Shown here: positions 24,883-59,690 of the stretch, one piece after another
Numbering within the stretch: the stretch's first letter is position 1
Layout of the letters: each line of letters opens with the position of its first letter
Source: Kondoa subrosea
Taxonomy: Eukaryota
Assembly (NCBI GenBank): GCA_039545335.1
Contig: BCIN01000003.1
Location: forward strand, 1,116,001 to 1,180,000
Length of the DNA stretch: 64,000 nucleotides
Reading direction: 5' to 3'
Translations under genes and position numbers: made by a program
The notes under the pieces: generated by a model
Database searches by the model: none
Seen by the model: the letters and a program-made list of their open reading frames with translations, nothing else
Told to the model about the DNA's origin: nothing

Positions 24883-26910
24883 ATGGCAACCAGCGATCCA
24901 AGATTGACTACGCATGCACCAAGAGTGAGTCAAAATTTGTATTCAATTGTTTCCATTGTTTTGCTTGAACAATCGCTTTCACAGGACTTGGTAGGCTATG
25001 GCAAGAACAGGCCTGATCCTCGTTGGCCAAATGGAGCTAAGATAGCTGTGAATTTTGGTAGGTTCCATCGCTGTGCGCAAACAACAAGCTAATTTGTTGC
25101 CTCAAATAAAGTCATCAAGTGAGTCTTCCTGCTATGCTTCTTCTTCTATTTTTCCTCTTCTGCTCATTTCACAGTAATCTGTGCTTATCTTCTGCCTGAA
25201 AACATGCCTTCTTTCTCTTCCTGAGGGAGACTGCCATTTACCATGTGCAGAACTTCATTCTGATGCTATTCGCTCTCTTTCTGCAGCTTCGAGGAAGGAG
25301 GTGAACACAGTATCGAATCCGGAGACCCACATGCCGAGTACAATCTTCGTGAGTTCAAACGATGTTTAAGTTCGATATGCGTACTGACTGGGATTTATCG
25401 CCGGCTGCAGAAGGTAGAATTGACCCTCCATATTGTTCTACATATACTGAGAGGGACTTGCAGAGACTGGCCCGAAACAGCCCTTTGTAGGAGAACGAGA
25501 CATACCTATGGAAAGTCAGTTCGAGTTCGGCAGCCGAGTTGGAGTAAGCTTTACTTTCCTGACTATCTGTTTTGTCTGATATTTTTCTGCAGATGTGGCG
25601 CCTTCTTCGTCTATTCGAAAAGCACAGCATGAAGGTCACTATATACGCTGTTGCTCAAGCGCTCGAAAAGAACATGCAGGTCTCGGAAGCTTGTGATGAT
25701 GCAGGTCACGAAATCGCTTCTCATGTCAGCTTCGAGAGCTTGTCAACGTGCACTCTGCTTGATTATACTTAAGTTTGACTTTTCATAGGCAATGCGTTGG
25801 ATAAACTACAGAGACATGCCAGCAGAGCAAGAAGAGGACCTGATTCGTCAAGCAGTCGCAAGCTTCCAGAAGACGTCAAAGACCGGTAAAGCTCCTGTAG
25901 GCTGGTGAGCTCGCGTACACTGTAGCCTTGAGGAAACTCCTTGACATTTCGAGCAGGTATGTAGGCCGACCATCTCCTAGATCACGAGCCCTACAGCAAA
26001 AGGGACGTTGCTATAGCTAGTCGCACAATGCCTCTGGCTGACTTTACATGTACAGGTCTACAAAGATCTTGGTCTCGAACTTTTATACAACTCAGACAGT
26101 AAGTCTGGCTTTAAATTCTGGCAAATAGTCGCTAAGCCTCTCAATCTATCTACAGATTACGCGTAAGATGTCCTACTTGTTCTGATGCAGGCTCTGACAA
26201 CATAGCAAAAGAGATGAATTACCGTACTACATCCCAGATCCATGGCTAGAACCGGGAGAAGAAGATAAAGGACTCATGATTGTACCATGTGAGAAACCTT
26301 TCCTTACTGTTTCGTACTATAGACACTTACACCGGTTGCCTAGATTCATATGATTGCAGTATGTCTCTGAAGTCGCTATATCGAGCTCTCCTTACTCAGT
26401 GATGGTCTCTAGACGATTTCAAGGTATGCCCTCAACTTTCCGGCCTCTATGCATTCCTTTACTGACTTCTATTTTCCAAAGTTTTACATCGCGCCAGGTA
26501 AGTTTCATATGACTCGTTGCTGTCGCGAGCTTATCCGTTTTTCAGGTTTCGGCAGCGCTTGGGCATTTGGAGAACATATTCAAAACGCTTTCGACACATT
26601 GTATGAAGAAGGGACTGAAGGACAACCTGGCTTCGTAAGTTGCCCCGACCGCTTGTCTTTGCATGCTGTGCTGAAACTTTCTGCAGCTCACAGTTGCTGT
26701 ACATGCCCGCTATATTGCCAGACCAGGTCGCTTCCCAGCACTCAAGAAGTTTGTGGAATATATCGTAAGGTCTCGAAGGTGTCTTTGATCTGTCTAGGCT
26801 GAAAAGCGACTTTGCAGTCATGCAAGGAAGGTGTTTGGGTAGCTACGCGCGAAGAGATTGCCAGACATTGGGCTAAAGAGTACCCGTACCAAGCCAAAGC
26901 AGTCGTGTAG
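24883..26910 (+). CDS. PuuE-type (allantoinase-like) polysaccharide-deacetylase-fold hydrolase; at least five microexons
   Basis: Spliced PRDLVGYGKNRPDPRWPNGAKIAVNFVINFEEGGE...ESQFEFGSRVGMWRLLRLF...GHEIASHAMRWINY...PVGWYVGRPS...NYADELPYY...VPYSYDCNDFKF...FDTLYEEG. The E/H/W signature replaces the D/H/H metal triad. Confidence 0.88.
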
Positions 26911-26952
26911 CCGCATGATAACAGAAGTTGCACAGAATATATATTGTTTTAC

Positions 26953-27950
26953 TCAGGCTAATTTTGCACCATCAACTTCACCCAAGTCTTAGCATCATTA
27001 CAGTTAATGGTCGGATTAGGTACTCACCAAGAATATCGGCTCCGCTCGTGTAGCTAGACTCATCTGATGCGAAGAAAACAGCAACCATAGCAACTTCTTC
27101 CGGGCGTCCTCCCCTTGCCATAGGTATTCCGGCATGCATTGAATCAATTTTCTGCGCCATATTCAGCAGGGTAGGTGAAATCCTCGCACGTTTACTGTAC
27201 CTCTTGTGTGAAACCTTGAATATTCGGTACGTCCATTACTCCCTGGTATAGAGATAAGATAACATATATGCGACAAGGGACAGGAGACACATACCGGCGA
27301 TATAGAGTTACATTTTATACCGTGACATGCGTATTCCGATGCCACGTTTTTGGTCAAGCCTAGAAGACAGAATTTGGAAGACGAATAGAGACTTGCGCCG
27401 GGAGATCCCTTGTGTGCCGCTGTAGAGGTCATGTTGATAATTGAGCCTCTAGTCCCTGCTTTCAGGAAGATTCGAATGGCCATCTGCATAAGAAGGAAGG
27501 GTCCTCGAATGCTGTATGTGAAGTTCAGACTTCATGTAAGTGTACAATTGCGCAGTGTACTCACTTCACTGCCATTATATCGTCAAACTCCGCAAGACTC
27601 TTTTCATGAAACGGACGCAAGTAACCGCCCAAAGCTGCGTTGTTGATAAGGCAGTCGAGATGGTCGAATCTGGTAGTTAAGAACTGTTCTAGCTGCATGA
27701 TGCTTTCTGGAGAGCTTTGATCTAGTTCAACCCAATGAAGGTTATTCACTGCACTATCCGATTGATCTGGAAGCTTGATGTCCGCAGCGACCACAATAGC
27801 GCCATGTTTGAGAAAGGTAGACACGAGACTCTCGCCGATACCTTGAATCGGAAGTCATTCGTTATCAGAGAGAACAAGGGAAGCAGGAAACGAACGGCCA
27901 GAAGCGCCCGTGATCAAGCAGATCTTCCCTTCCAGTCGCTGAGCAGTCAT
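26953..27950 (-). CDS. Classical short-chain dehydrogenase/reductase (SDR)
   Basis: MTAQRLEGKICLITGASG.GIG, LDCLINNAA, GSIINMTS, YSSSK, NSISP, IPMARGGRPEEVA...SYTSGADILVDG. Confidence 0.93.
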
Positions 27951-28185
27951 AAGAGCACAAAGGTGTGCAAGCGGACGCAGAAAGAGTGCCGACTTCAAAC
28001 GGCTTGTCGAATTATCAAGTTCCGACGGATCGAAGCATTCTGCCTTGATTCAGCAGTAGGAAGATGGAAGTATCGCGGAAGACAAGAAAAGTCCAAAGCA
28101 ATATTCAAATCTCATCGATGAGAACACATCGTTCATGGTCAAAACTAGGTGTCCAACTTTACAATACGACTCATGCAATGTATTT

Positions 28186-30355
28186 TCACCTCGGTACATT
28201 CCGCTGTACTTCTGCAGTTTCAATATCTCCTACAGGCAGCGAGCTGACTACTGCCGTATCCTTCTCATCTACTTCACTACTACTTTCCGCCGGACTTTCA
28301 GCTTTCGGTGTCGCAACTATCGATCTTGGTTTCTTTAAGTCCACATTCTCGATGAATAACGATAGAACAAAGCTGGCGGCCATAAGAGGGAGGAAGAAGA
28401 TGAATATATAGCGAAGAGCGGTTTGATATGCATCGAAAACGCCTCGGACTTGATAATCTGGAAGACCAGCTGGCAGGTCTAAAGAAGCTTCTTGCATGAT
28501 TTGTTCTCGAAGTCCAGCTGGCAGATCTCTTGGAAGCTTGCCACTGACTACTGTGTTGAGAATCGCGTTGCCAATAGCGAGTCCAAAAGAGCCACCGAAT
28601 GTTCGCAAGAAGTTCCGACCACCTTATCGAGAGATCGTCAGTAGTGTGAGCAGATAAAGGAGTTCAGCCTACCTGTAATGACTGCCCGGTCCTGAGATGG
28701 AGCAGTAGCTTGGGCGGCTACTAGACCAGATTGCGAAACACAACCAAATCCAAGACCCTGCAGCAAGAGGATGACAATAATAGGGCCTAGAGGAGTCGTC
28801 CGTTTGAACATGATTTCCAGGCCAGAACCAAGAGTCCAGAGTGTGCAGCCGAGCAAGATAATTGATTTCACTCGACCCGTTCGGGAAGCTGTATCAAATA
28901 ATCAGCGCAAACTCGGCTTACATTGTGTCTATACTCACTGACGATGCCCATAAGAGCAGAGATGATAGATTGAGGAATGAGGAGAGCCAGCATTATTGCC
29001 GCCGCTGTCACTGGATCGAGCCGTCGAAGCGAAATGAAGTAGATCGGTAGCCAGTAGATGTTTGCGTAATAAACAGCTCCTTGTAAGAAGAACGTTGCAA
29101 GAAGTAAGCCAGGAGTGTGATACTACAGTCGGATGAAGGTCAGCTCAGTCTCATTGCCGATTCAGCACATACTGTAAATAATCGTACTGTGGTAGAAGTC
29201 AGCTGGAATGTCAAACAATGAATGAGAACAACTCACATGGTAGAACTGGTAACGCTGCGAATTTCCATTCTACAAGAATGAAAGCCACAGCCAAAGCGAT
29301 TCCAATGAGAAGGGTCGACAAAATAATGGGCGACGACCAAGCATATTCAGCACCTCCAGAAGAGATCGCGAAAAGAATGAGGACATTTGCAGCCAGAGAA
29401 AGGATGGTTCCGCCATAGTCGACTTTCAGTAATTTACTCTTCATGTTTCCACCAACTGGCTTGAGAGGTAGAGTTCGCCATATCACGAGAGTACATATCT
29501 ATATGAGCGACAAATAAGACGAAGCCGGCACAAGCGAAGTTTTTGACCTACAGCTGTACAAGGAACTGGGATCCAGAAAACAGCTCGCCAAGTATAGTAT
29601 TGCGTTATAAGAGCACCTAAGAAAGGACCTATAGAACACAGTTTCTGTCAGTCGTTGCCATAATGCATATTGCTGATCATTACCTGCGGTATTGCCTAGC
29701 GCTACTGAAACTCCGATAAAGCCTTGCCATTTGCCTCTCTCCTGGAGCGTTGTTATATCGGACATAATCACCATGGCCTGCAGATAGCTTCTCGTCAGAT
29801 CGAATACCGGAAAGTAGTATGCGCTCACGAGATTATTGATACCTCCTCCTCCTATTCCAGCAATAGCTCTGAAAGTGAAGAGCTGTATTGGCGTTTGAGC
29901 AAATGCGCAAGCCAGGTCTCCGATTGCAAAGATCCCCAAAGCAACAAGCAACAGGGTTTTCCTGCCCCAGATATCCGAGAAGCGAGCATAGACCAGTTGA
30001 CAGCTGGTGTTTGCGATGAGGTAAGCTGTGCCAATCCATGACTATGCATCGCATCAGCTGAAGCACGAAACATTTTGAAAGTAGCTTACTATACTACGAC
30101 CCGCTTGTAGATCCTCTGCTATCTGAGGCTGGGCTAATGCGACAGAGGTTGCATCGAGGAAACTGATACAATCGCATCAAGGAGTGATCCAATACTAAAC
30201 CAGAAACTAACTTACCTGAGAAAGAGTGCGAAAGCGAGACCTAGAAATACGACTACTCTTTTTTTATTGCTGAAGATTGCCGTCTGATCTTCTAAGCTGA
30301 TCACTCTTTTGAGTTTAGGCGAAGGAATTGTTGCATCAGCTATGGTATTCTGCAT
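28186..30355 (-). CDS. MFS transporter (DHA2/EmrB-like drug:H+ antiporter type)
   Basis: LEDQTAIF start, RFSDIWGRKTLLL, FRAIAGIGGGG, IMSDITTLQERGKWQG, KVDYGGTILSL, RNFLRTFGGSFGLA. Confidence 0.92.
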
Positions 30356-30569
30356 GCTTTCGCGAAACAAGTGCTACGGCGAAGTTTAGCGGAATCAAGC
30401 ACAAAAGATTTGTGCTGCAGAGAGAACAGGCCCAGGACAAAATAGAAGATGGCAGAGCTTAGGAAAACATAGAGACAAGCAGATTTCATATCGTTATCTT
30501 GTGAAGAGCCGAAACTTCCTTCCTTGAAGCCGACTGCCAAACGGTTCGGCGAGCCAACGGTTCTTTGTA

Positions 30570-33562
30570 ATGGATGCAAGATCTGATGAGATACAGCTGC
30601 GGCCGCAGAAGAAAGCAAGAGTAGCAGCTCCTAGAGGTGGTGCAGCGTGTACAAGGTGTCATCAGAGAAAAGCAAGATGCGAGTGAGCCGAATGCTTATC
30701 TTTTTCAAAGCCTAAAGCTGAATAGGGACTAATTGACAGTCGCTCAAGTCCTGATAATGCATGTAGAAGCTGTGAATTGGCAAATGTCGAATGTTTAACG
30801 CTTCCGAAGCAACCTAGGAAAAAACGGACACCTTCTGTAGCACCGCAGTCTTCTTCTGCTTCTCAGCCTCCTCAGCAACCTGTCAATCCTGTCAATGTCA
30901 ATCTTCATTCCTCCTGGCTTCCTCCGCCGAATGCATTTGACCTAGGAATTGGTACCTCCAACAACTCGCCTCAACAGCAAAGCAATGAGAGAAGAGCTTA
31001 TGAATTACCAGACTTGCCAGAAGACGATCCCTCTGATACTGTTTCTGCTTCCGGTATTGATCAAAGTGTGATGTCGAGCGGTGGAGCTCATCTCGATGAC
31101 AAACGATTGAGCAACGCTGCTCGGAGCGTGGCTTTCCTCAGTCTAAACGCATCAGCAGATGCTTCTTTCCTTGTGAGTGTTCACTCTCCGGCAAAGTGTC
31201 TTATATCAATTTACCGATAGGGTGCCTCATCTGGCTTCTCCTGGACTGAATTGGTCGTATCTGGGTTGTTGGCAGACAGCAAGCTAGACAGCGCAAGTTG
31301 GAGCTTCGACACAGATGGACAGCCCGCTGCGCTTTCGAGTTCTTTCTTGGAAGATGTCTCTGCTGAAGTCGCAAGTTCAATATTCGATATTTGGTACGCT
31401 GGCAATTCACAAATCCCTGAATGATGCTCATGAAAAAGCTTTGTATAGCTACAAACACATTCAGCCTCGCTATCCTTTCGTCGACTGGCTTCGCATGCAT
31501 AGGTGGTTCAATGAGCGTATCAGCATCATGAGAGCTGCTAGCCAGCCAGGAGCTAGTCCGGGGACAAAAGCAGGTATCCAAGACCTCTTCATCTCCGTCA
31601 ACTTCTTTTGATCGTGTAATCCTCCGTCTATAGCTGCCCTATTCCTATGGCTTTTCTTCGCACTCGGAACAAGCTTGTCTAGACGTTCTCCTTTGCCGGG
31701 TCTAGCTAGTTCTTCAAGTTATTTCGCAGAAGCGCTGAAACATCTTGATGCTGTAGGTAAGCAAAAGATCTCGCATGCCTGATTGATGCATTCTCAAGCT
31801 CTTGATAATCAGCTGGAATGCATAATCTGGTTGGCTTACAAGGTTGGTGTATTTATTCTCTTTCTTTTAAATTTTTTTAACGTTGGTTTAGCTTTGCTAC
31901 TTCTTTCCATGTATGCTCTGCAACGACCAGCGGGGCCTAGCGCTTGGTTTCTTTCTGGTTCTGCGATGCGACTTGCCATAGCTATGGGTCTGCATCGCAA
32001 GCTATCACCTGAACGCGAACGTGCTGTAGGTCTGGCTTTACAATGACCTTGGGATCTGCTCAAGACGCATCCGGTAGATTGGCTTCTATGCTTCTGAGAT
32101 GCGCAAAAGGTGCTTCTGGTCGGCTTATGTGGTGAGTTTGAGAGTAAGATCTATGTAAAATAGCTCATATCGTTCTTTTCCCAGATCGACCGAATGGTAT
32201 GTCTGGTAAGATGTGTGAAGAAGATGCTCAAGCATGTTTGCATCGCCAGGTAGCACTTACATTAGGTCGACCGTTTGGCATTAGGTAGGTGATCAGTTTC
32301 CTTCCTTTTCGAGCTATACTTACTACTTGCGTAGCGACAGCGCCATTGATGCCTCATTACCGATGAACGTGGTAAACACGTCTCTTATTCAGCTAACCAA
32401 CCCTGCTCACTCGCCCAAAGAATTGCGTGCAGATAGATTGGCCAACCGAAACTTCGCGAAGCGCTACCAGCATGACTTCCGCTCTACATCACATCAAGTT
32501 GTGGGTCTCAAGAAACGGATGAATGATATATACTAAATGATGGTTTAGAAAGCGCATCGACTCTAAAGTGATTGAAGCTTTCTATCGTGTCGATACGGAC
32601 GAACAGAATTTAGCTCAAGCAGTCTCTTTGTTGAATGATATCGATTTTTGGGCGGCAGGTATCCCACTTGAGGCGTCAACAGAGCAGGTATGTCCCTATA
32701 TGTGATTCATTGTATGACCGCTAATCTTTCTTGTTTATTTACAGGCTAAATTGCTACCTTGCTGTACTCGTGACTGTGAGCTGTTCTCCTTGGGCCAAGT
32801 ATTGAACTGAGACTTGTTTAGGGTTTTTGATGAAAGGAGAGCGTAGGCTCTAGCATATCTTCCGTATCCGCAAGTTTGATCTGTTCGGCGATGTTACAGA
32901 AACTAAGCAGCATCTCCTTCGACCATTGACAACTGTGGTCAAAGATCGACCTTACTGGCTTTCTCTTTGCGCACAATCTGCATCAGCCACGCTTCAAGCA
33001 CAAAGAAGGATACATCAAGCTCGTCCTTTCTCCCCTACGATCTCTGCGTTGCATAGGCAAGTACTCATAGCTTGTAAACATCTAATGCTGATACGAAAGC
33101 ATAGTACATTCCTATCTGGCATCACATTGTTACATTGTGTGAAAATCTTTCCTTCAGCTTTACCGGCTCAAGACATCCACAAAGCTATTCGAGCTACCAG
33201 CAGTACGTATGATACACTCATTCCTCACAAGATCTCACAGTCTTGCAGATATTCTGTTTAGCTACGTGCAAGAATACTCTCAAGTCGCTCAAACCTTTCA
33301 CGACACTTTTGAAGCCCTGGCGGAATTATGTCTCAGTCCAGCTCCAGCACCTTCAAATCATGATCCATGGAGTGCCAACCTGGCAGATCTAGCTTCCAAC
33401 ATGCCCGCAGGAACAGAAATTGGCGCATTCTTGCAATCTCTAGGCTGCGATCCGGCATTCAATAGAATGATCGATGATACTCATCAAGTCCCAGCTTTCT
33501 CTCTTCCGCCAAACGATGATACATTACCTATCAGCGTACCCTTTGCCTTACCAGGATTTTAG
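30570..33562 (+). CDS. Zn(II)2Cys6 fungal transcription factor (Ppr1/UaY-like features)
   Basis: ACTRCHQRKARCD...ACRSCELANVEC; VAFLSLNASADASFLGASSGFSW; AWFLSGSAMRLAIAMGLHR; MRKRCFWSAY; LTLGRPFGI. Confidence 0.9.
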
Positions 33563-33687
33563 GATGCAAAAGTGATGCAAGGGGAAAACTGCCTGTGTTC
33601 CGTAAATGCTGCACTGAATGTACATTTCTTGCCTATACGGATATGATCCATTGCAAACATTGACTAGCTCCGAGTCCACCCAGGGCG

Positions 33688-36600
33688 TCAAAGCTGCGAA
33701 GCACCGAAGTCCTCCGGCGTAGCTATCTCGTCCGTTGCCGGAACGGTGTAGCCAAAAGCGTTATCCTCAAAAGCTAATACCAATTGTCAGTCGGCATCTG
33801 AAAGGTGATTAGCCAAAGCAACGCACGACCATAAAATGTTGGGCGATCTGAGCACACTCATCTAATTCAGTGCTTGTCAATTTCATCGACTACAGAGTAC
33901 ACTCACGATATCGGAACCAAGGCTGCTTTGACTTGAACTTTTCTACTAGATCAGGATTGGATGTGTAATAGCGACCGAAAGCGACCGCTTCGGCCTCTCT
34001 TGAAGTAATCGTTGACAGAGTGTTGTCCCAGTTGTAGCCTCCCGCCGCGATTAATGGAACTGGTGAAGCTGCGAAGCGATAAGGCGACAAAGATGCTGTT
34101 TCGTCAAGACCTTCTAGCTTCTCTTGTTCGTCCTTAAATTCGTCAAAGCGAGGCTCAATCGCATGTCTAGCCGAAAATTGAGTATAGATGACGACCGCGA
34201 GCAAAGTCACTAACATATACGCTATGCGCATAGTACCAAGCTCTCGACACAAGTGAGTCCATTGCTGTGGTCTTTCCACGCCTCGAGTCTGCCCTATCGT
34301 CAATGCGATGAAGTAAAGAAGAGCAACTTGGCTCACATCATTGAACAGACCGAAGGGAGCTATCCGCATACCAACTCGGTCGTTTCCAACAGCTTTGCAC
34401 ATAGCTTGTACGACGTCTAACGTGAATCGACATCGTCTAAAGAGATCGCCGCCATAATTGTCCTCCCTCAAGTTGATATTCGAGTGCAAGCTGTGTGAAG
34501 AAGCATGAAGTCACTCTACGCAAATCAAAGGCTCGACTCACAATTGATCAGGTAGATACCCGTTTCCAGCGTGCAGCTCCACGCCGTCAAAGCCTGTTAC
34601 AGATCGAAATGTTCAATGAAATACCTGTATATGGCAAATGACTAACCGGCTCGTCTAGCATTGGCAGCCGCTATTCCGAAGTCTTTGACGACCGTCTCGA
34701 TATCTTCTATAGTCATTTCTCTTGGTGTTTCAAAAGGTAGACCAGTCTTGCGGTCTGTTCCAGCTTGCGGTACAGCTGAAGCCGAAACCGGTTGACTTCC
34801 AAGAGTTGCTGTCGAATTGTTTCTACCCCTGTGCCATACTGGAAGCGGAATGTGTTAAAGTGAAATAGCGAGCAGTAGATCGACTTACATTGACAGACAA
34901 ACACTCCACCTTTCGCATGTACGGCATCTACAACTCGCTTCCATCCTGCTATCTGCTCTTCGGTAAATATTCCAGCTAGGGCAAAGTATGAGCCAGAACA
35001 GTATACGAAGAGCGACTCTGACTGACGAACGCCTGGCGTGCTTGCGGCCAGAACGGTGACTGGTACAGCTTCCGATATAAGAAGACCGCCAGGAGTTGCT
35101 CGCGCGGTATAGTATTCTATCATGAGATAATTCGGAACCCAGGTCTTTGGGTGTAACAAAGATGGATTAGCCTGTAAAGGATATTAGCAATTACAGTGCA
35201 GAAGCGCAAAATTGGCATACGCGGTTTCTCGTCATAGGTGCAAGCACGATGCGATGTTTCAGGGACAAAGCACCAAATTGGGTTGGACTCCAGAGCGTAG
35301 GTACATCCGAAGAAGCGGAACTGAATAGATCGCCAACAACTTTTGCCATAGACAGAAGTTTTCGATCGTGGTAACGAGCGGATACTAGTGACAGCCCAAT
35401 CGGTAGACCATTCTCTGCTTTCAGACCAGGACTTGTAACCTAATCAGCCTGGCACAAAGTAATCCTTAAATCATGGCCTACACATTAATGACTGGAACAT
35501 GGAGAGCTGTCCAGCAGCTATTGAAAGACTATAAGACTGTATTAGCTTTTTCTTCATCATCATATATGTCAGGACTTACAGCATCTCCAGTTCTTGCAAG
35601 ACCTTTGGGCGCTTCTCCGACAGTACTTGGCGTTAAGATGAGATCATATCCTGGTGTAACAGAAGTAAGTTCAGCAGACAGACTGAATTAGAAAAGAAGC
35701 ACACCAGACGCAAATTTATCCCAAACCGGTCTCATGCGCGCGATAGCATCATAAGCTTCTAACTGATCTGCCCGACTGATCTTGTGCACGTTCTCAACAT
35801 GACCAATTAAAGAGGAGTCAAGTTTATCGCGAGCGAAATAGTAATCTCCCACTATGCAAAGGAGAGAATCAGACAACGGTGAGATCGGTACGGCGAAGAA
35901 GACTCTTGACTTACAGAAAGCAGCTCTTCCTTCTCCGTGCATCATGTTGCGAGCATATGAGCTCAAATGTTCGAAACCTACAGGTGTATCGACATCTTCC
36001 ACAAATGCGCCAGCTTGATCGAGAAGTTGTACTGCTTGAGCCAGCACTGATTTAGTACCAGATTGCGCTTTGGGCCACACATGAGTTCGACAGATAGCGA
36101 TACGAGCGCCTTTTAGAGTGAAAGAAGAGGGTGCAGGTTGATCATCAGTGATTTTGAATAGATCGGCTAAAAGTTCGAGATCCTCTATAGAGCGAGCATA
36201 AAAGCCAAGCGTATCCAAGCTGACAGAATAGATCTTGAGACCTTCGCGAGAAACGCTACCCCATGTCGGCTTGAACGCCCAAACGCCTGAGATCAGATTA
36301 GAAATGACAAAGAAAGGCAGCAGAAGATTGACTTGCCATTGAAAGACCCCGGACGAATGACTGATCCACCGGTTTGCGTGCCTACACGATGAAGTATGAG
36401 CTTTGCGGGTCGTAGTGTCACAAAGACCCAAAACAAACCCAGCGCAACATGGCATTGACAATCGCCCACAGCAGCGCCCTGTTGAACACATAAGTACGAA
36501 TGCAAGCCTTTTGGCTGAGAGCCTCACTGAACCGGAAGATGAACCTCCAGGCGTTCTCTCAGCGTCATGTGCATTGCTTGTCTTGGTTCCGTTGACCGTT

Positions 36601-37044
36601 GCTGCAAATTCAGTTGTAGTAGTTTTGCCAAAGATCAAAGCTCCAGCACTTCTCAGTACTTTGACACAGTCTGCGTCCAAGTTGGCCTGATGATCTTTGT
36701 AAATGGGTGAATTGTGTTGCGTGGGAAGATCTACGACCAACGAAACATCAGCAGCTCATTAGATCAACAAGAGACAGCTAAGAGCACACACCATATGTAT
36801 TGATTACGTCTTTTACTCCCACCATTAAGCCTGCTAAAGGACCTTTGTCGGGCAGTGCATCAATTCTTCTAGCTTCTCGTAGAACATGTTCAGGATCCAA
36901 GAATGCCCATGCCTTGACACTCTCATCTCTTGCAGTATAGCGATCCAAGCAGGATTGTGCTATTTCTTCGACTGTCGCATGACCGTTTCGAACAAGAGCA
37001 ATAACTTCTGGTCCGGATAGGCGAGCATAATCTCGGCTGGTCAT
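33688..37044 (-). CDS. Fused amidase-signature enzyme (N-terminal, about 37044-35330) and Old Yellow Enzyme/NADH:flavin oxidoreductase (C-terminal, about 35300-33688)
   Basis: Amidase: GPLAGLMVGVKD, GKTTTTEFA, TPGGSSSGS, GTQTGGSVIRPGSFNG, GLPIGLSLVS. OYE: LKHRIVLAPMTRNR, YYTARATPGGLLISEA, GWKRVVDAVHAKG, GFDGVELHAGNGYLIDQ, AFGRYYTSNPDLV. One exon (35431-35221) reads through both domains with no stop. Confidence 0.85.
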
Positions 37045-37356
37045 CGTCGGTAGTACACAGATAAGCCGCAGCAGACAGAGAAGTCTAAGTGAAAGAGAGG
37101 AAGAAATCGTTATCAGCTATCAACAAGCGGTGCCGGTCGGGTAACCCAAGACATCTCCAAGCACCGACGGCTCCGATAGTTATCGCTCGCTGTTCGCTTG
37201 CAAAGGAGTGTCTTTCCATTGTCTAAGTATTTCTATTTACATTCAGATTGCCCGTATTACGTGTTACTAGTATTGTCGATTGATCCCAGAATGAGAAGCC
37301 CAAGATATTAAACACATAGAATGTCCATGACAGCAGAGTATGCTCTAGCCGTATCA

Positions 37357-39597
37357 TCAGCAGTCACAGTCTATAATCCAGATTAGTGAAGGAAAGAGTG
37401 TATTGGGAAGAGGAGCCTGACCTTTCTTTCCTTTGGGAAGTTTGTGAAATCGATCGTTGCTCAAAGCAAGACCCAGATCGAGACCGAGACCATGCTTGCC
37501 AGGGTGAGACAATAGGTGATGACCTCGATGTTCAGAGAGGTTGAGTCCAACATGAGCATTGAGGCTTCTAGAAGGGACTTTGACAGCTGAACAGATCACT
37601 TCATAAGGTAGGCCAACGTATGAAGATTGATTACGCACCTCCACAAGCGACAGCAAGTCCACCTAGGCTGACTTTGGGCAGCTGTACTTTGAGACCTGAC
37701 CAGAAAGTAAGCAAATAGGATTAGCGTCATGCATTCAAGGAGAAGCAAAGGGTTGACCCACCTTTCTTGGCGCAAAGACCGATAAGAACACTGCCATCCA
37801 ATTTACCTCTGACATCGAGCAGGCCTTGAAGCTTTATGCCTACAATCACTCTCAGCAAAGAGATTGGACATCATGGCTGCGAGAAACGTACCAGCTCTTA
37901 CGCAAAGGTTGAGGAATGCATTGAGATCCAAAGAAGCGTTGACTCCCAAGAGACCATGGAAATTGATACCTTATAAAGCAATATAATCAGGTAAGAAGAT
38001 AATCAACATCAAAACGTCGTACCAGCTCTGATGCACAGCTTGACGAAGGCATCAACATCTAAAATGGCTCCAGCTTTGAGGAATGCTTGAACATCAACAC
38101 CTAAAAAGCAAAAATGAGAAAAGCGCAAATGTATATATATATATAGACAGCACACACCAGCCGAGACACAGAATCCAATGAAAGCATCCAAGTCGAATTT
38201 GCCATTAAGTCCAACGAAAGCCTTCAGGTCGACAAGGCCTGAGAAAGCATGATTAAACAAATTACATCGGAAACAAGGACCGGAGAAGATCTACCTGCTT
38301 TGATACAAAGGCCAATGAAAACATCAAGATCCAGTTGGCCACTGACATTAAGCAGAGTCTTGAAGTCGATACCTGAAGATCAATGAAGTCAGTACCATAT
38401 CAAGATAAGAGTAGCGGTGCAAGACGGGCAACCTACCGGCTTTGATGCAAAGATCAATGAAAGCGTTCAGGTCTAAAACTCCACCTATGCCGATGATTGT
38501 ACTGAGATCCAGTCCAACTATAGTAGATGAAGAAACAGCAAATTAGGTAAGTGAGAAAAATTAGCCATCAATTGGTGTGACATACCGCCGCCTGATAGAT
38601 CTGTGCCTAACCCAACGCCCAACGGAGGAAGACCCAAACCTGTTTGCAGGCAAGAAATACATGTTAAGCAAAAGAATTCAGATTTAGACACAAAAAAGGT
38701 ACCGAGATGGCCATTGCCTTGATCCTTTCCGCCTAATCCTACTCCTAAGCCTAATCCTAAGCCAAGACCAGCACCTGATCAAATCGAATCGAATCGCACA
38801 TGAGAATTATCACAATTTAGATTCGCTAGTAGCAGACTTACCTGAATGAGGTCCAGTGTTTTGAGGCCCATGTCCCAATATCGGTAAGCCGATACCTGAA
38901 CAGATGAAAACTCGTGTTAATACATAATTGGTTCCCGTATTTTGATTTCAATGACTTACCAATGCCGATTCCACCGCTTGGCAAGTGACCTTGTCCTGGC
39001 CCATGTGGCTTATTATCACCAGCGCAAGGAGTCTTGGTAGGTGGAGCAGGTGAAGAGGAGCATGCCTTCCTGTTGATTTCGCTCACTGCTGGAGAGATCT
39101 TGGAAACGATTTCATGAGTTGTGTAGAATTCTTTGCCGTAGATATCTGTCGCTGAAAGAGGCTGATCAGGCGTGTCTATGAGGAATGAGTATCATTGAGT
39201 GTTCCAAAAGCAGGCGATCGCACTTACAGCATCGTCCAGTAGCCGGATTTTTTTGACAGCAAGTGCAGTCAACTTGGACTTGATCTGCAGTAGATATCAG
39301 CAAGCACTGCTTGCGTTGATATGATCACTCACTAGCGACTGAAGAAGGCGCAAATTCGTTCGAATACCAGTCACCAGAAGCTTCGCAGGAAGCGCGGCAT
39401 GCGAGTCGCCAGCTTTGCTTGAATTGATCCAAAGTTTGGCTCTTGTTGTACTGTTGAAGCTGTGTCAGCCATGCTACACATACTGATGACCGACGACATT
39501 GACTTACAACGATAGTAGCCTTTTCGCAAGCTGGGATTGCTCCAGTCGCAAGAGTATAAGAAGCCAGGAAAGGTAAAAGAAGGAAGGCAGAGAGCAT
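37357..39597 (-). CDS. Secreted protein A: Cys-rich N-terminal domain, Gly-rich linker and six 26-27 aa hydrophobic repeats (3' end approximate)
   Basis: Signal peptide [58 protein letters not shown]; repeats such as GIDFKTLLNVSGQLDLDVFIGLCIKA, each on its own exon. Confidence 0.75.
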
Positions 39598-39769
39598 ATT
39601 GGTAAAAGAATGTGTGTTTGAATGAGTGTGAAAAATGAGAGTATTGATGATGAAGAAGAAGAGCGAGACGAAAAAGAAAAAGCTGACTGCTTTATACAAT
39701 TCTGACCAGCGTCCGAGAGCCACCTCTTTAGTCCATCGATTCTGGCCAATAGAAGCCGCACTGACGCTT

Positions 39770-39805
39770 TAGTCAAAGCTCTAGTCAAAGCTCTTGTCCA
39801 AGCTC
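39770..39805. repeat. Three-copy 12-bp tandem repeat (TAGTCAAAGCTC) upstream of secreted protein A
   Basis: tagtcaaagctc tagtcaaagctc ttgtccaagctc. Confidence 0.75.
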
Positions 39806-40314
39806 GATTCCAGACATCGCACACAGGACTGCTCTGAGCTCCTGTACATATCTCCGCAACCTCCAAAAGGCAAGAGAGGATTTGAGCTTGGATCTGACAG
39901 AACTGCTCTGTGCGATTCTTTCACTCGGGGAGCGGGTACACAAAGGGGCGAATTGCGCGAGGCAGAGTATCGATCAGACATAGCAGAAAGAGTTGCAGAG
40001 AATTGACGTGACGAGTAAGTGAATCGCAATTGTACGAATAACGAATTGAGTTGAATTGAGCCAATGAGGATGACGATTACTGGATCAGACACATTTGTGT
40101 CGTTGTAGATCTCAGTAATAGTTTGGAGCTACTGGACACATGCAGAGATTCGCATCGCGGGGCAAAGAAAGATGTGAAGAACTTTAGAGTCAAAGTGTAT
40201 ACTATCTAAATGACTGTGTTTGCATTGGAGACTCTATGAAAGTCTGAATGTCCGCAGTTACTCCCGCTCGCAGAGACAGAAAACAGAACACTATAAGAAA
40301 AGCCCAATCAGTTC

Positions 40315-42754
40315 TCAAGCTTTGACTATTGCAAGAAAGACGCATCAGTAATGGAGTATGCAGAAGAGAGATGAAGACTGACCCTTCTTGCTCCTGGAAA
40401 CCTTGTGGAATCGGTTGGTTGTAGAATGGAAGCCATTCGCACTTCGCAAGTTGCCTTTCGCGGCACCTTTTGCATGCAAATTCAAGCCAGGGAAGAGGAA
40501 GCTGAGACCTGTGATGATTGATACGTGATTCTAAGCAAGCATGCTCATCTCAAGGAGAAAGAAACATACCTGGAGGAGCTTCGCTGCCTGAATCGCTGCC
40601 TGAGTCACTACCTGCTCCACTGTTGCTGCTTCCTCCTCCTCCAATATTAAGAGAGCCACCTAGAGAACCTCCCAGTATTCCAGTAAGCATATTAATAATG
40701 TTTGCGCCTAAACATAATTCAGAAAATGGTCCATTGTAAAGAAAAATTACGTACCACTTTTGACTCCGATGTCCATGAGACCTTTGAGATCGAGCTTGCT
40801 TGCAGCAGTAACAAGGCCATTCAAGTCAAGAAGCCCATCTGCACCCAGAACGCCGTTCAGATCAATACCTATTGAAGTTGAATTTCAGCAAAAGAGCAAA
40901 ATAGCGAGAAAAGAAACGAACCGAATGAAGCAGCCATATCTAGAAGCGCGTTTACATCCAGGAGCCCGTCAGCACCAACTAAGCCATCCAAATTGATGTT
41001 CATGTCTAAAAGTGAGTTGACATTTAAGAGACCATCTGCTCCTAACAGCCCTTTCAGGTCTACGCCTGTTGAGCATTAGCAGTCAGTAAAGAATGGATCA
41101 TGAAGTATAAGCAGCAGAAGCTTACCCATACCGGCAGCCATATCAAGAATGGAGTCAACATTCAACTTGCCCTCTCCATTCATCAAGCCATTCAATTGAA
41201 GCCCTAAACATGTTATTAGCGAAGAGGACAATGTATTTGAGCATCTGTGCACACCAGCCTTCGATCCAAGTTCAAGTAAAGTGTTCAAATTGAGCATTCC
41301 TCCAGAACTCAGAAGGCCATCCATTTTGGTGTCAAGTAAGCCGTTGATATTTAGCTTCCCGTCCCCACTGAGTAGTCCTTTCAGATCCAAACCTGTTCAG
41401 ATGGATGAAGAAGTCGGAAATGATTGCAATTAGCAAGTGAAAATCATGTACCAGCTTTCGCAGCGAGATCCATCAACGCCTGAATGTTTACTTTGCCATC
41501 ACCACCAAGCAAGCCCTTGAAGTCGAAATTTCCGTTCATAAGTGCACCTAAATCGAGACCACCAAGAAGTCCTGTAAGAGAAAGTGACATCAGTTCAGTC
41601 GAATGTAACGGAAATGCTGTCGAGGCATGTAACATACCACCTCCTGCCTGTCCACTTGCGCCTGCGCTAGCATCTCCACCCAGATTGAGCTTGGGGAGGT
41701 TCAATCCAAGTCCTAAATGCCACGAGAAAGAAGAGTCGAGTCTTGTCAAGTTGAATGGAAGCGCAGAAAGGAAGACTTACCTCCTTCCCCGCCAATGTTC
41801 ATGAGACCAGAAAGATCCAATCCTGCGTGCGCCAATGGGTAAGCGAAAGAAAATGTAAAAAGTTGAGGAAAATCAATGTACCCAGCTTTCCTCCCAGATT
41901 AGCAAGAGCTCCAAGGTCCAATTTACCATTGGCTCCAATCAGAGCATTGAGATCGATGCCCATCTTGGCGCAAAGATCAAGCAACGCAGAAACGTCTAGT
42001 TTCCCGTTTGCGCCAATCAAAGCTTTCAAATCGATTCCAGCCTTTGCGGCGAGATCTAAGAGAACATCAATGTTTAGTTGCCCATTGGCGCCAAGTAGAC
42101 CCTTCAAATCGATTCCTTTTCTCAAGAGCATTAAGCAAAAAAGCCCGAAATTTGCCGGAAAGGATGACACACCAGCCTTAGCACACATGCCCAAAAGTCC
42201 ATTGATATCTAATTTGCCAGACGTGCCCAAAAGGCCTGAGATATCGAGGCCTGAGCGAAAGTTGTGAGCAGATGTCTAGAAAAAAATAAGACAGCAATGA
42301 AGAAGACATACCTCCTAAGCCTGATAAGTCCAAGCCACCATTTCCATCAATGATTGCTCCGATATTGAGACCAGGGATTTGGATTCCTGCACAAAAAAAG
42401 AAGCAAAAGAAAATGATCAATATTGCTGGTAGATGACAAGCGCAACACAAGACAGCTCACCTCCTCCTGCTTCCCCTTTTCCGCCTAGTCCCAAGCCAAA
42501 GCCAGGCAAATTGAAGCCTATCGAGAGGAAAAACTTCAGATGAGCGAAATAAAACGATCAATTGTTGTGCAGACTTACTTCCGCCCGCTGATCCTGATCC
42601 CGAGCCTGATCCCGAGCCTGATCCTCCGATATTGAAGCCAGGAAGACCTGTTGCATGAGAGATTCTTTCATTTTTGCATGACACATCGACTCGAGACGAT
42701 GACTTACCGATTCCAATGCCTCCTGAGCCCGAGCCTGAGCCTGAGCCAGAGCCT

Positions 42755-42795
<41 letters not shown>

Positions 42796-43409
42796 TGAAC
42801 CTGAACCTGAGCCCGAGCCAGAACCAGAACCAGCAGGTTGAGTAGCAGCAGGGGGACTAGATCCACCAGAGCAAGTTTGACGATCAATTTCCTTGACAGC
42901 AGGAGTGACTTGGCCAACAACATCGTGAGTAGTTTGCACCTCTTTCCCATAGATGTCGGTTTCGGAGAGAGGCTGGTCAGGAGTGTCTGCCCAGAGCGTT
43001 CAGTGTTGTTTGTTCCGCATACATACATGAAACTTACAGCATCGACCGGTAGCAGGATTCTTTTGACAGCAGGTACAGTCCACAACTACTTGGTCTGCAA
43101 GTTCAAGTCAGAAAGAGTTGCGATTCTTTCGATACGAAGACTCACTGGGAGTGGAAGAAGGGGCGAATTCATTGGAGTACCAGTCTCCTTTAGCTTCGCA
43201 TGAGGCACGACAGGCAAGACGCCACGATTGCTTGAATTGCCCGAGAGATTGATCTTGACCATACTGTAAGAAATATGTGAGTATCGATCTCGACAATACG
43301 CTTGGAATTGACTCACAACGACAGTTGCCTTCTCGCAAGCTGGGATATCGCCAGTGGCGACAGTATAGGAAGCCAAGAACGGGAGTAGTAATAAAGAAAT
43401 GACCAGCAT
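40315..43409 (-). CDS. Secreted protein B, paralog of A: Cys-rich domain, (GS)n linker and about ten 26-aa Gly/Leu repeats
   Basis: [60 protein letters not shown]; repeats such as [26 protein letters not shown]; ends ...[14 protein letters not shown]. Confidence 0.78.
42723..42831 (-). repeat. Degenerate 6-bp coding repeat encoding a (Gly-Ser)n linker
   Basis: gagcct/gagcca/gaacca/gaacct units; translation GSGSGS... in ORF 42457..42939. Confidence 0.9.
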
Positions 43410-44313
43410 TTTGAGTTAGTGAGTGAGATAAATGAGAAAAGAAAGGAAAGTAAGTTTGTGAGATGAAGAAAAAGAGAGCAATTAAGAAACTTATACAACC
43501 CCAATGTGGGTCTGAGAACCTTCAAACGATGTCCATCTCCTAGCGGAAACATGTAAAAGAAGCAGCACAGACGCAATTCGTCCAAGCTCAGGCCAAGCTA
43601 ACAGTGAAACTTAGCAACTTGCCCCTATAAGGTATCTGCATATTAGCCGTAGCCTCAAATACTCAAGGCTCGGACTACGGAGAATCGCTTAACGACCCCT
43701 GTTCGGAATAGCAACGCACAGACGAGAAAGTACGGTACAAACGTCAGGAGAAAGAATCTGGCAATTAAGCACACGAGCAGACAAGTAGAAGAAGGCATTC
43801 TTCAAGGCAGGACAAACAACAGCGTGGGCTTGAAAACCCTGTGCAGCTGGATCGCCTAGCATGTGGTAGGATTCATTGATTCTTGCACTTCTATTCCCTG
43901 CATGACGGTCGCCGATACTTGAGCTCGAAGCTTCCTTCCCTTGAACAGGTTTTCCAACGACATTTTCAATCGAGGTTCAGATTGGGAAATATGGTGAACT
44001 ATGGCCAGATATCGGTTTTGATTACTGAATTTATACTGAATGCAGTCTGGTAGCATTGTCAGGCATTGACCGTTGATTGTTTGGCTGAGATCTCGCAATT
44101 TCAAGCTAAACGTGTGCTTATGTAATATCTTTATGCCTGCTTTTGCAATCGAATGGCTCTACAAAACTCTCGACACACAGTATGTATTGCATTTGAGAGA
44201 GCTTCAGACATGCAACAAACAAAATTGACAAATCCTTCCCTTTCATTACTGAGTCGATGCTCTCCGAAGCCCAGCTCTTTCCCCTCTTCCTCACTGAGAT
44301 TCACTTATCGAGC

Positions 44314-44829
44314 ATGAGTATGTTGGTTTTTCCTCATGCGCCGCTGTCAACTCATCAGAGATTAACAGCTACAGCATCGCATACCCTGCTTTCCAAATTA
44401 GCTCACGACGAAGACATCCTCTTCGCAGACGAAGAGGCTCGTAAAGCCAATGAAGCGGCCATAGATCGGATTTCGGAAGAAATGACGACACTGGCGGACG
44501 AGAAGATAGCTCTCCGCGAGACCATCAAGTATCTTGTCGCTGAGGAAATAGTTGACGGCAAGAACAATGAGAAGGAATTGGAAGAGGTTGCTCAAGCCGA
44601 GAGAGCTAGTACTGCAAAATTTGAGGAGGATGCGAAGAAGGAGGAAGAGCTTGAGATGAAGGAAGAACAGCTCATGGAAGCAATCCATCAGGTTCGTTTC
44701 ACTTTCACGCCCAATGAAGGCAATAGCTTGAAGCTGAACATGTATCAGGAACGTGTGATCTTGAAGAAAGACAGAGAGGATCCAGACTTAGACGTCGTAG
44801 CATTGACTGATACGGTTCTCGAATATTGA
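44314..44829 (+). CDS. Small acidic coiled-coil protein of unknown function
   Basis: ATG A|gtatg microexon, then TASHTLLSKLAHDEDILFADEEARK...KKEEELEMKEEQLMEAIHQ|ERVILKKDREDPDLDVVALTDTVLEY*. Confidence 0.6.
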   Translation: MSMLVFPHAPLSTHQRLTATASHTLLSKLAHDEDILFADEEARKANEAAIDRISEEMTTLADEKIALRETIKYLVAEEIVDGKNNEKELEEVAQAERASTAKFEEDAKKEEELEMKEEQLMEAIHQVRFTFTPNEGNSLKLNMYQERVILKKDREDPDLDVVALTDTVLEY

Positions 44830-45081
44830 AATAGTTTTGCAATCACATTTGACCAAGCGTTTTGACAACGGCCTCGTCTCGATTCTGTCTGCACTATATC
44901 CATTCTTATTCTTCAGATGATTATCATCTTCCCAGCTAGCTTGAGATGACGAAAACACAAAAAGGGAAATCAAGAACGCGAATTCCGGTAGCCATGTTCT
45001 CGTGGAAGAATTCTTCTCAGGACTTGCTATATTGATGACAACAAGCTTCTTTGCCTTGAACCATCAATCATCTATCTAAAC

Positions 45082-45628
45082 ATGACCAGTCAGTATCTGT
45101 TTCCACTCCAATCGAGCCTAACTTACATCTTATGTCAAGCTATCGAACCGAAATTTTCTTCTCTTCCTTTACCTTACGATCACGCTCTAGACAAGATCAA
45201 TGAAACCGAAGGTGAAATCGCTATCGAGAAGCACATCATGGCCAAAGAGAACACAGCTGAGAAATCGTTATCAACGGAACTCACTCAACTCGCTCGCGCT
45301 GAAGCAGAAGGCAGAAAAACAGTGGCTAGATTGATTGAATTGGCCAATGCTCCTAATGCGGACCATAAGAAGCTGGACCAAGAGATTGATGATGCTGAAG
45401 CTGAATTGCTCTTGATTCATTCTCGAGTACGTCTTCCAAAAGCATATCAAGGCAATTATAGTTGACAACTGTTAACAGATTCGCAACCTCGAGAAGGAAG
45501 ACTCTGCAATGGTGCAAGAGATGTCAATTGAAGCTAGTCGCATTACAGCCGCTCGCAGGAAGTTGAAGGAGATGCGAGACAGAGCAGATGTTGAGATAGA
45601 AGCACTTGATGAGGGGCCTCTCGCATAG
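45082..45628 (+). CDS. Small acidic coiled-coil protein of unknown function
   Basis: ATG ACC A|gtcag microexon, then IEPKFSSLPLPYDHALDKINETE...AELLLIHSR|IRNLEKEDSAMVQEMSIEASRITAARRKLKEMRDRADVEIEALDEGPLA*. Confidence 0.6.
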
Positions 45629-45846: not shown

Positions 45847-47654
45847 TGGAGAACATTCGACATTCGCTGCATGTCCTTCGGCACGAGCGATTGCCCTTGA
45901 ATCTGTTTGCCGCTTTCTTCTGTTGCGCAAGGGAAATGCCTGACTTGAAGATGCAGACGGAACCAGAGATCTTGCTGGAATAGGTGGTCCTGCTCCTGTT
46001 TCGCATTTCTATTTCGTGGCCTAGTAGACAGCGCTTCTCTTCCTCTTTATCTCGCTGGACCGCTCAGAGTTGGTTTCATGACAACATTGGCTCGGACATC
46101 CAAAATTCTGATCTGCTATGAAATAGGTCGGACGCTTCTCCTATCGCGTAGACACTGGAGATACTGGATCATGCCGAGGTATGACTTCCGCGAAGTGTTG
46201 TGACTAAAGGTTCACTGATGTCGGTATCGTGAAGTCCTAGTATACGTCAGCGAGCGCATTTGCAACTCTGCTTACCAAGACTGATTTGAGAGTAGCTGCC
46301 AACCAAACAAAAAGAAAAAGGCGAGCAGCTTGGTGCTTGTATGCATATTCCAGGAGGGTAGGCCAATCTTTGGTGTGATAATCGTTGTACACTCATTTAA
46401 TCTTACGCACAGCGGATGGTCAGTCATATACATCTCATCGTATGATGGAGCTGGAACTGTATTCTAGGACCATCTGCCGACCTGAGACTGAAGCTGCAAT
46501 ATGTCGCTACTTAGCTGATGAACTTGGGACGGTAGTTATTTCGCCAGATTATCACAAGGTGCGCAGTATCCGATATTCTTGAGACATGCTGATGCTGCTC
46601 GGAAAAGGCTCCTCACTATCCATTCCCACATGGTAGGGGACTTCTCTCGCTTCGAAAAGCTATAACCGACTGATTATTTTGTAATAGCTTTGGAGCAAAT
46701 ATACTCGGTGCTAGAATGGGTCGCTAATGATGGTCTTAATCACCTGCTCGCGACTCACGACAAATGTCAACAAAGCACAATTCGTGTCAATCCGCATCTC
46801 ATTGCCATTTCGGGTATGTACAGTTCTATTTGTTGCTTCTGCCAGTTACTCACTTGAATTATAGGAGGATCGGCCGGCAGCAATTTAGCTGCAGCAGTCA
46901 CTTTGCTTTCGATACAAAGACCTCTGCCTAATGCTCGAATAGCCGCTCTCGGTCTTCTTTACCCAGCAGTTGATTTAGCAGTACCATTCGCAGAAAAAGT
47001 AGCAAGAATAGAGTGAGTCTCCCCCAACATTAAAGACTTTGGTGTTCAAACATCTTCAAACAGTGCCGCTCATGCTCTGCCACATTGGATGTCTCGTTTC
47101 TTCCTACATTCTTATGTTCCACCACCGTACAAGTTCGACAATCCACTTATTTCGCCTAGTCATGCATCAAATGATCAGCTCAAACAGTTTCCTCCTACTG
47201 CTATACTTACTGCGGAGCGTGATTACCTTTCCCATGAGGCGGATGTATTTGCTGGGAAATTAGATAGGAACGGGGTGAAAGTGAGGAACAGACGATTTGA
47301 AAATGTTGGACATGGTGAGTGTCTTGTATGATGTTTGTCCAATTGGTGTTAACGAGATATTTGGCAGCTTTCGATGGTATTCCGACCAGCAATATAGAGC
47401 AGCGAGGTCATAATGAGAAAGCTAGAATAGAAGCTTGGGCCAGTGAGTTGCTTTTGCTTCTGATCCAACTCATTCAAGCTAAATCTTCATGCAGTGATTC
47501 GCGATATTTTCCGCGAAAACCTAATTGAACAGTCGTCAGGATCTATAGAGGTCAGCTTTTTGGCTGATCGCCACCTCACGAGACTGATTTGGGATGCACA
47601 GCCAATAGAGACAGATCTTCGCGTCGAAGAGTTGCCAGCTACTTTGTTGCAATA
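45847..47654 (+). CDS. Alpha/beta hydrolase, hormone-sensitive-lipase family (ends approximate)
   Basis: HIPGGGW oxyanion motif (spliced across a 6-nt exon), VVISPDYHKAPHYPFP, IAISGGSAGSNLAAA, LLYPAVDL, NPLISP, FPPTAILTAERDYL, NVGHAFD. Confidence 0.85.
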
Positions 47655-59601: not shown

Positions 59602-59690
59602 TGTGAAGACTATTGGTATATAGAGAGTGTATGGTATGACTTATGTGGTAGCTGTGACAGACATTGACCAAGCTAGAGTCGTTAACTTCA

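Follow-up and report, generated by a model that had tools for sequence, protein, structure and literature searches.

The locus described here lies in a 64,000-nucleotide stretch of contig BCIN01000003.1 of Kondoa subrosea (NCBI GenBank assembly GCA_039545335.1, positions 1,116,001 to 1,180,000, forward strand), which is referred to as the window. On its minus strand, an amidase-signature enzyme of the malonamidase-E2 (MAE2) type runs into an Old Yellow Enzyme (OYE) in what is very probably a true fusion gene, as judged from its reading frame, its splice sites and a second genome with the same join. Beside it stand four further genes, predicted to encode a CE4 polysaccharide-deacetylase-fold hydrolase, a short-chain dehydrogenase/reductase (SDR), a major facilitator superfamily (MFS) transporter and a Zn2Cys6 transcription factor. 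The coordinates of all features are collected in Table 1.

Structure and conservation of the amidase-OYE gene

A spliced model of the fusion gene was built by hand and checked by script. Its coding sequence of 2,457 nt is divisible by 3, contains 0 internal stops, starts at an ATG (37044) with A at -3 and closes with a TGA ending at 33688, the same two limits that had been given in a first-pass annotation of the window. The introns are 48-63 nt long, 16 of them GT-AG and one GC-AG, and their density is alike over the amidase and OYE halves; the other genes of the window are likewise split by many introns of about 50 nt, which together with a regulator bearing a fungal-specific TF domain and a DASH Dad1 gene marks the DNA as fungal. 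Removal of the GC-AG intron (intron 4) is required for the conserved ...SFNG-VWAFKPTWG... motif, as seen in the alignment with stand-alone amidases, and a gene finder that accepts GT-AG introns only would split the amidase half at its most conserved motif.

The amidase and OYE halves meet within one exon. A stop-to-stop frame on the minus strand (35439-35191) takes in the end of the amidase, a linker and the beginning of the OYE with 0 stops, and because the join lies inside the single exon 35431-35221, no splicing assumption is needed for it. The first-pass annotation had described this join as an in-frame fusion lacking a stop codon, preceded by a 50-nt GT-AG intron (35481-35432) and bridged by a short Ser-rich linker. 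The frame is indeed open and the join is kept in another genome (see below), the intron is present in the spliced model, the linker has a length of 9 residues, and the exon piece 35430-35221 yields exactly the 70 junction residues that had been quoted. If intron 8 is read through, a stop is met immediately past ...VINV; if intron 9 is read through, a stop follows 9 codons on. A protein atlas lookup with the junction exon gave a best score of 0.81 and no family.

Table 1 Features of the amidase-OYE locus and of the remainder of the window (positions are those of the window)
Feature	Position	Strand	Description and basis
Fusion gene, coding sequence	33688..37044	-	Hand-built spliced model, script-checked; 18 exons, 17 introns, 818 residues
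Fusion gene, exons 1-9	37044-36792, 36730-36528, 36478-36439, 36381-36337, 36286-35915, 35851-35705, 35650-35580, 35528-35482, 35431-35221	-	
Fusion gene, exons 10-18	35171-35027, 34975-34889, 34838-34647, 34593-34542, 34490-34337, 34288-34215, 34166-33907, 33847-33830, 33773-33688	-	Stop codon included
Amidase-signature half, MAE2 type	35323..37044	-	Residues 1-429; Pfam, PDB relatives, alignment
Ser-rich linker	35296..35322	-	9 residues (SSASSDVPT), residues 430-438; alignments of both halves
OYE half	33688..35295	-	Residues 439-818; Pfam, PDB relatives, alignment
Junction exon (exon 9)	35221..35431	-	Last 36 amidase residues, linker and first 25 OYE residues
Intron 4	36287..36336	-	Sole GC-AG intron of the fusion gene (GCAAGT...CAG)
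Intron 8	35432..35481	-	50 nt, GT-AG (GTAGGC...ACAAG); directly upstream of junction exon
Intron 9	35172..35220	-	49 nt, GT-AG, phase 0; after ...TRNR
Internal ATG, Met421	35347..35349	-	In last amidase helix; sole candidate start for a separate OYE
CE4 polysaccharide-deacetylase-fold gene, PuuE / cyclic amidohydrolase type	24883..26910, approximate	+	Multi-exon; Pfam Polysacc_deac_1
SDR gene	26900..27950, approximate	-	Pfam adh_short / adh_short_C2, 3 exon pieces
MFS transporter gene	28100..30250, approximate	-	Pfam MFS_1 / Sugar_tr, 3 exon pieces; divergent from regulator
Zn2Cys6 transcription factor with fungal-specific TF domain	30570..33562	+	C-x2-C-x6-C ... C-x2-C-x6-C, Pfam Fungal_trans
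12-mer CCGCAGCAGACA	37066..37077	+	22-33 nt upstream of fusion ATG
C2H2 zinc-finger protein	1610-2413	-	
GH47 mannosidase	10980-12638	+	
Alpha/beta hydrolase	47017-47328	+	
Cdc27/Pol32-like polymerase subunit	47863-48423	+	
Protein kinase	57524-59640	-	
DASH Dad1	61936-62484	-	

Both halves were compared with their families. When eight exon pieces of the gene were scanned against Pfam (cut-off 27 bits), Amidase (PF01425) was matched by two pieces, at 104.3 and 32.6 bits, and Oxidored_FMN (PF00724) by four, at 64.9, 30.6, 24.3 and 17.2 bits, the latter two lying under the cut-off on their own. Amidase exon 5 as query yielded 17 proteins of 277-466 aa, each carrying PF01425 alone; the best relative is 52% identical (Cercospora), proteobacterial relatives reach up to 46%, and the nearest full-length ones lie at about 45-52%. 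Residues 1-429 are collinear, without large gaps and with the region of the GC-AG intron included, with 14 of these 17 relatives (425-466 aa; the three shorter than 400 aa were omitted), and the 14 stand-alone amidases terminate about 2-22 residues past the position at which the linker starts. The amidase motifs are intact, with K78 in GVKD (36813-36811), S148 in GGSSSGS (36542-36540), S172 in GTQTGGS (36364-36362) and R175 in VIRP (36355-36353). The columns matching K78, S148 and S172 are invariant in a 12-sequence alignment (K75, S146 and S169 of its first sequence), and these three residues presumably take the Ser-cisSer-Lys roles of MAE2.

Among solved structures, MAE2, an enzyme that hydrolyses malonamate, is closest to the amidase sequence of the window (E 4.9e-21), ahead of GatA as the next family (2.4e-13), which bears out the resemblance proposed at first pass. 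The same order is found for the nearest full-length homologue (P0001), with 8.2e-55 for MAE2, 1.2e-40 for GatA and about 1e-16 for rat-type FAAH. MAE2 (PDB 1ock, 1o9q) is also a short amidase-signature enzyme, of 412-414 aa against about 430 here, and both proteins carry GGSSSGS and GTQTGG-S-VIRP, the aligned MAE2 chain reading GTQTGG-C-VIRP as an S155C mutant entry; S131, position 155 and R158 of MAE2, counted along the alignment, fall on these motifs. MAE2 differs in being a stand-alone bacterial enzyme to which no OYE is attached, and its identity to the amidase half is modest. On these alignments, the amidase half has the make-up of a complete MAE2-type amidase-signature enzyme.

The OYE pieces span PF00724 profile positions 2-26, 30-99, 99-165 and 185-236 and beyond, and in the junction frame the match begins at profile position 2 of 342. 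Eight proteins of 355-489 aa, each with PF00724 alone, were found with the C-terminal OYE exons, the nearest being 44% (Punctularia) and 40% (Kwoniella) identical, and residues 439-818 are collinear with all eight stand-alone OYEs. In the PDB, the OYE half is closest to OPR1, OPR3 and OYE1 (1oya), with which it has PF00724 and H-x-x-N-x-Y in common. T460, Q540, H612/N615/Y617 of ELHAGNGY (34573-34556), R664, R763 and Y790 are retained in columns conserved among the homologues, as mapped to OYE1 numbering by motif. The four catalytic motifs listed at first pass (GVKD, GGSSSGS, GTQTGGS and ELHAGNGY) are therefore all present in the spliced model, in which both halves have full length. The top NCBIfam model for the nearest homologues is 'N-ethylmaleimide reductase', at 236-271 bits and under its 403-bit cut-off. 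The OYE half thus has the make-up of a complete classical Old Yellow Enzyme; unlike stand-alone OYEs, it is preceded by an amidase and has its own start codon limited to the Met in the last amidase helix. The fusion protein ends in -SQL (33688-33699, minus strand), which slightly resembles a peroxisomal PTS1 tripeptide; a stretch akin to -SQL is present in the two nearest OYE homologues, away from their C-terminus.

The junction exon was searched exhaustively by phmmer against 1.84 billion representative proteins, and 12 proteins were found at E <= 0.001. Nine of them cover the amidase part alone (query 1-38 to 1-41), and one, P0034, covers the OYE part alone and is an ordinary OYE with its own Met. 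Another match, a repetitive protein of 1,641 residues without an aligned stretch, was taken as spurious. The remaining one, P0027, crosses the join, with 73% identity to query residues 15-70 (E 5.5e-19). It was called as an open reading frame (ORF) of 85 residues on a contig of 3,753 bp from another genome and is the sole member of its cluster; it reads from the amidase helix through a 9-residue linker (5/9 identical) into the OYE start and ...TRNR, and then runs into an intron position that equals intron 9 of the fusion gene, with the frame of the join also kept. Up to the OYE, the amidase frame is free of stops in both genomes. That P0027 has the join, frame and intron position in common with the window makes an assembly error less likely and speaks for selection to keep the frame open. 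The linker stands where stand-alone amidases have a variable C-terminal tail and stand-alone OYEs their N-terminal tail, which is 9-13 residues long in complete, compact OYEs.

A full-text literature search, mostly at title and abstract level and with subscription journals thinly covered, returned no paper on an amidase-OYE fusion and no characterised protein of this architecture, in agreement with the first-pass annotation. The fusion is best regarded as a rare and apparently undescribed architecture of two well-known families rather than as a new kind of system.

Neighbouring genes and known pathways

The CE4, SDR, MFS, regulator and fusion genes are packed into about 12 kb, and the 3' end of the regulator gene is about 126 nt from that of the fusion gene. 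Five exon pieces of the CE4 gene match TIGR03212 'allantoinase PuuE' over profile positions 2-297, each far under the cut-off, and one exon of 69 residues matches the PuuE structures 1z7a, 3s6o and 3cl6 (E 6e-7 to 7.5e-6); the same single exon gave no match to 3qbu at E up to 0.01. For the SDR gene, the PDB matches are to generic SDR structures only. The Zn2Cys6 pattern of the regulator was read from the translated frames 30528-30686 and 30726-31220.

The 12-mer CCGCAGCAGACA upstream of the fusion gene has one other copy in the 64-kb window, at 24576-24587 (minus strand); this copy precedes the CE4 gene by about 300 nt, and the two are oriented alike relative to their genes. With up to 1 mismatch allowed, the search gave 2 matches, a number that was reached in 1 of 100 shuffles. 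CCGCAGCAGACA may be a candidate shared cis element of the CE4 and fusion promoters, an idea to be taken as a lead only because the motif was picked post hoc.

The set of genes resembles the lower nicotinate pathway of A. nidulans, as described in the available parts of PMC9304392 and PMC8478523, to which the following statements on hxn genes are limited. In that pathway, the OYE HxnT reduces 2,3,6-trihydroxypyridine, the HxnT product is oxidised by the SDR HxnW, the resulting cyclic imide is opened to a half-amide by the CE4-fold imidase HxnM, and ammonia is released by the amidase HxnN; HxnP/Z as MFS transporters and HxnR as regulator complete the set. An enzyme of each of these four types is thus present here as well, along with a transporter and a regulator, within about 12 kb. 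In addition, His191, Asn194 and Tyr375 of OYE1 are conserved in HxnT (PMC9304392).

However, the resemblance is one of pathway logic (ene-reduction, oxidation, ring opening, deamidation), and orthology finds no support where the parts can be compared. HxnN has 543 aa and FAAH1 as its closest structure (PMC8478523, PMC9304392), whereas the amidase half has about 430 aa and is of the MAE2 type. HxnR contains two C2H2 zinc fingers together with PF04082 (PMC8478523), whereas the regulator here combines Zn2Cys6 with PF04082. The closest structure of HxnM is HpPgdA 3qbu (PMC9304392); the one CE4 exon compared here matches PuuE entries, which may point to a different type. The hxnM-hxnW pair is divergent, and the CE4 and SDR genes here are convergent. 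No gene of the hxnS, hxnX, hxnV or hxnY type was seen in the window, and the name HxnT is absent among the eight relatives of the OYE half. An orthologous hxnN-hxnT fusion was considered and rejected on account of the amidase (MAE2-type, about 430 aa) and the regulator (Zn2Cys6), and the analogy was kept. In one yeast, the hxn cluster has taken up an unrelated amidase (PMC8478523), indicating that amidases have been swapped before in a pathway of the hxn type. The words 'fused', 'fusion', 'chimeric' and 'bifunctional' occur 0 times in the main text of PMC8478523.

Fusions comparable to the amidase-OYE gene are known for each of the two families. In the fungal urea amidolyase DUR1,2, an amidase domain is likewise linked to another catalytic module that serves the same release of nitrogen (PMC3073912). 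The amidase there is allophanate hydrolase and its partner urea carboxylase. The DUR1,2 fusion is widespread and well characterised, in contrast to the amidase-OYE fusion with its two genomes. In the 'bifunctional salicylyl-CoA 5-hydroxylase/oxidoreductase' (NCBIfam NF006101), an OYE barrel is also fused to a catalytic domain of the same pathway; these enzymes are bacterial, and the OYE is joined there to a flavin monooxygenase in place of an amidase.

Proposed function and alternative explanations

Overall, we favour, with a probability of roughly 0.6, the explanation that the locus encodes a single 818-residue bifunctional enzyme in a five-gene catabolic cluster. The fusion gene would be expressed as one polypeptide, and its ene-reduction and amide hydrolysis may serve one pathway acting on an unsaturated imide or amide, as had been suggested at first pass, with the neighbouring genes adding context. 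A role in the catabolism of a cyclic imide or lactam is proposed tentatively, at somewhat below even odds, and the five genes may be co-regulated. The following substrate class and order of steps are likewise provisional. The MFS transporter would import an unsaturated N-heterocycle, for example a cyclic imide or lactam resembling maleimide, a pyridone or a pyrimidine, whose activated C=C would then be reduced by the OYE domain at the expense of NAD(P)H. The SDR would adjust a hydroxyl or carbonyl of the ring, the cyclic amidohydrolase would open the ring to a dicarboxylic-acid half-amide, and the amidase domain would free ammonia from the half-amide and leave the dicarboxylate. The fusion would thereby hold the entry step and the nitrogen-releasing step at 1:1 and in one place.

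It is possible, though doubtful, that the locus represents an undescribed fungal reductive route for an unsaturated cyclic imide or lactam, with ene-reductase and half-amidase welded together, which was built independently of hxn from a PuuE-type hydrolase, a MAE2-type amidase and a Zn2Cys6 regulator. In such a route, the fusion may recruit the ring-opening hydrolase into a metabolon in which toxic intermediates would be retained.

Several results weigh against a bifunctional catabolic enzyme. The join is known in one further genome only, as an 85-residue fragment, and no fused protein is present among the 17 amidase or the 8 OYE relatives. The junction alignment, used to scan metagenomes, matched 34 loci, of which 33 hold OYE only, one (L099) amidase only and 0 a fusion; the matches that reach query residues 10-45 were identified as OYE N-terminal tails, not amidase. 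The amidase subfamily is large in Proteobacteria; at least 593 bacterial relatives were detected, and 80 loci were kept for the comparison of gene neighbourhoods. An OYE lies within 7 kb in 3 of these 80, which is about chance level: adjacent and on the same strand in L047, about 1 kb upstream on the opposite strand in L071, and about 6 kb away in L027. Homologues of the CE4, MFS or regulator genes of the window are found in 0 of the 80. Pfam analysis of 117 neighbouring ORFs from 44 of the bacterial loci gave a heterogeneous picture, including second amidases, formamidase, solute-binding proteins, luciferase-like monooxygenases, MmgE/PrpD and CoA-transferases. The most frequent neighbour is a second amidase-signature gene, in 11 of the 44 loci (L002, L004, L011, L014, L016, L019, L021, L022, L025, L026 and L034), with L004 and L022 holding a formamidase/acetamidase-family gene as well. 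The bacterial neighbourhoods therefore give no independent support for a functional link between amidase and OYE. Moreover, since the amidase and the regulator are not hxn orthologues, the pathway analogy rests on enzyme types only, and since the OYE acts first and the amidase last in the hxn pathway, the two steps are not consecutive and substrate channelling would not obviously be served. Finally, residue 421 is Met in both genomes, and a separate OYE could begin there, whereas V, A, I or G stands at this position in the 14 stand-alone amidases.

This last point leads to the main rival of the fusion reading, namely that one locus gives two proteins. The OYE would mostly be expressed separately, from an internal promoter and Met421, the amidase would come from transcripts that end early or retain intron 9 and so meet the stop mentioned above, and the apparent fusion would be a gene overlap. 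An OYE that starts at Met421 would have an N-terminal tail of 18 residues, which is compatible with stand-alone OYEs, whose tails are 9-13 residues or longer. A separate amidase, on the other hand, would extend over the initial 25 residues of the OYE barrel and would have no stop codon of its own, for neither genome has a stop past the amidase helix. The ATG of Met421 is in a poor context, with T at -3, and intron 8 lies only about 80 nt upstream of it, leaving little room for a non-coding promoter. In addition, linker length and frame are kept in P0027 at 73% overall identity. Separate expression is therefore considered quite improbable; if it did occur, the locus would be a case of overlapping genes, which are prone to be mis-called by gene finders. 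It is still less credible, and in our estimate very improbable indeed, that the join is an assembly or sequencing artefact, or a recent and decaying join of neighbouring genes without function as a fusion. The rarity of the architecture in the databases searched would fit such an origin, but the join is repeated on an independent contig from another genome (P0027), at 73% protein identity and with frame and intron position kept, and the catalytic motifs and the 17 splice sites are without exception intact, with intron density uniform over both halves.

A different alternative accepts a real single fusion protein and places it outside ring catabolism. Such an enzyme would detoxify electrophilic unsaturated amides of the acrylamide, maleamate or fumaramate type, or would tailor a secondary metabolite, with its two domains acting on consecutive steps in either order. 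Enzymes of consecutive steps are the usual partners in fusions, and MAE2-type enzymes act on a small dicarboxylate half-amide such as malonamate; the affinity of the OYE homologues to the 'N-ethylmaleimide reductase' model, albeit under its cut-off, points in the same direction. In one bacterial locus (L047:1198-3707, a Cellulosimicrobium cellulans contig), an OYE gene immediately precedes the amidase homologue, in the same orientation and about 48 nt away, and the gene order is thus the reverse of that in the fungal fusion; this adjacency may be due to chance because it is seen in 1 of 80 loci. On the other side, the adjoining cyclic amidohydrolase, transporter and regulator fit a multi-step catabolic route, and no polyketide synthase, nonribosomal peptide synthetase, terpene cyclase or P450 was found in Pfam scans of the window ORFs, which covered ORFs of at least 100 aa over the whole window and those of 45-99 aa in 25178-33760 and 37088-41472. 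We regard this alternative as unlikely.

Returning to the bifunctional catabolic enzyme, the fusion would act as a 'Rosetta stone' for both families, placing malonamidase-type half-amidase and ene-reductase in the same pathway in this lineage. For two large families in which most fungal proteins lack an assigned role, it would provide a function open to testing, and the neighbouring genes yield a short, concrete list of candidate substrates. The cluster would then be a second, apparently convergent example of the chemistry of fungal nicotinate catabolism. In biocatalysis, OYEs are workhorses for asymmetric C=C reduction, as are amidases and imidases for chiral half-amides, and a naturally coupled pair may be useful.

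Two minor observations were made outside the five genes and apart from the six ordinary housekeeping-type genes that close Table 1. Among the OYE loci of the metagenome scan, one contig (L112:135-1418) carries an OYE that was matched in four pieces with short gaps, like an intron-bearing eukaryotic gene, with no amidase attached. In the window itself, the region 38800-45500, directly upstream of the fusion gene, holds a long run of frames of 100-180 aa, mostly on the minus strand, without a Pfam match at E up to 1e-4 for ORFs of at least 100 aa and up to 1e-3 for shorter ones (to 41472); these frames could belong to a large gene without known domains or to a degenerate element.

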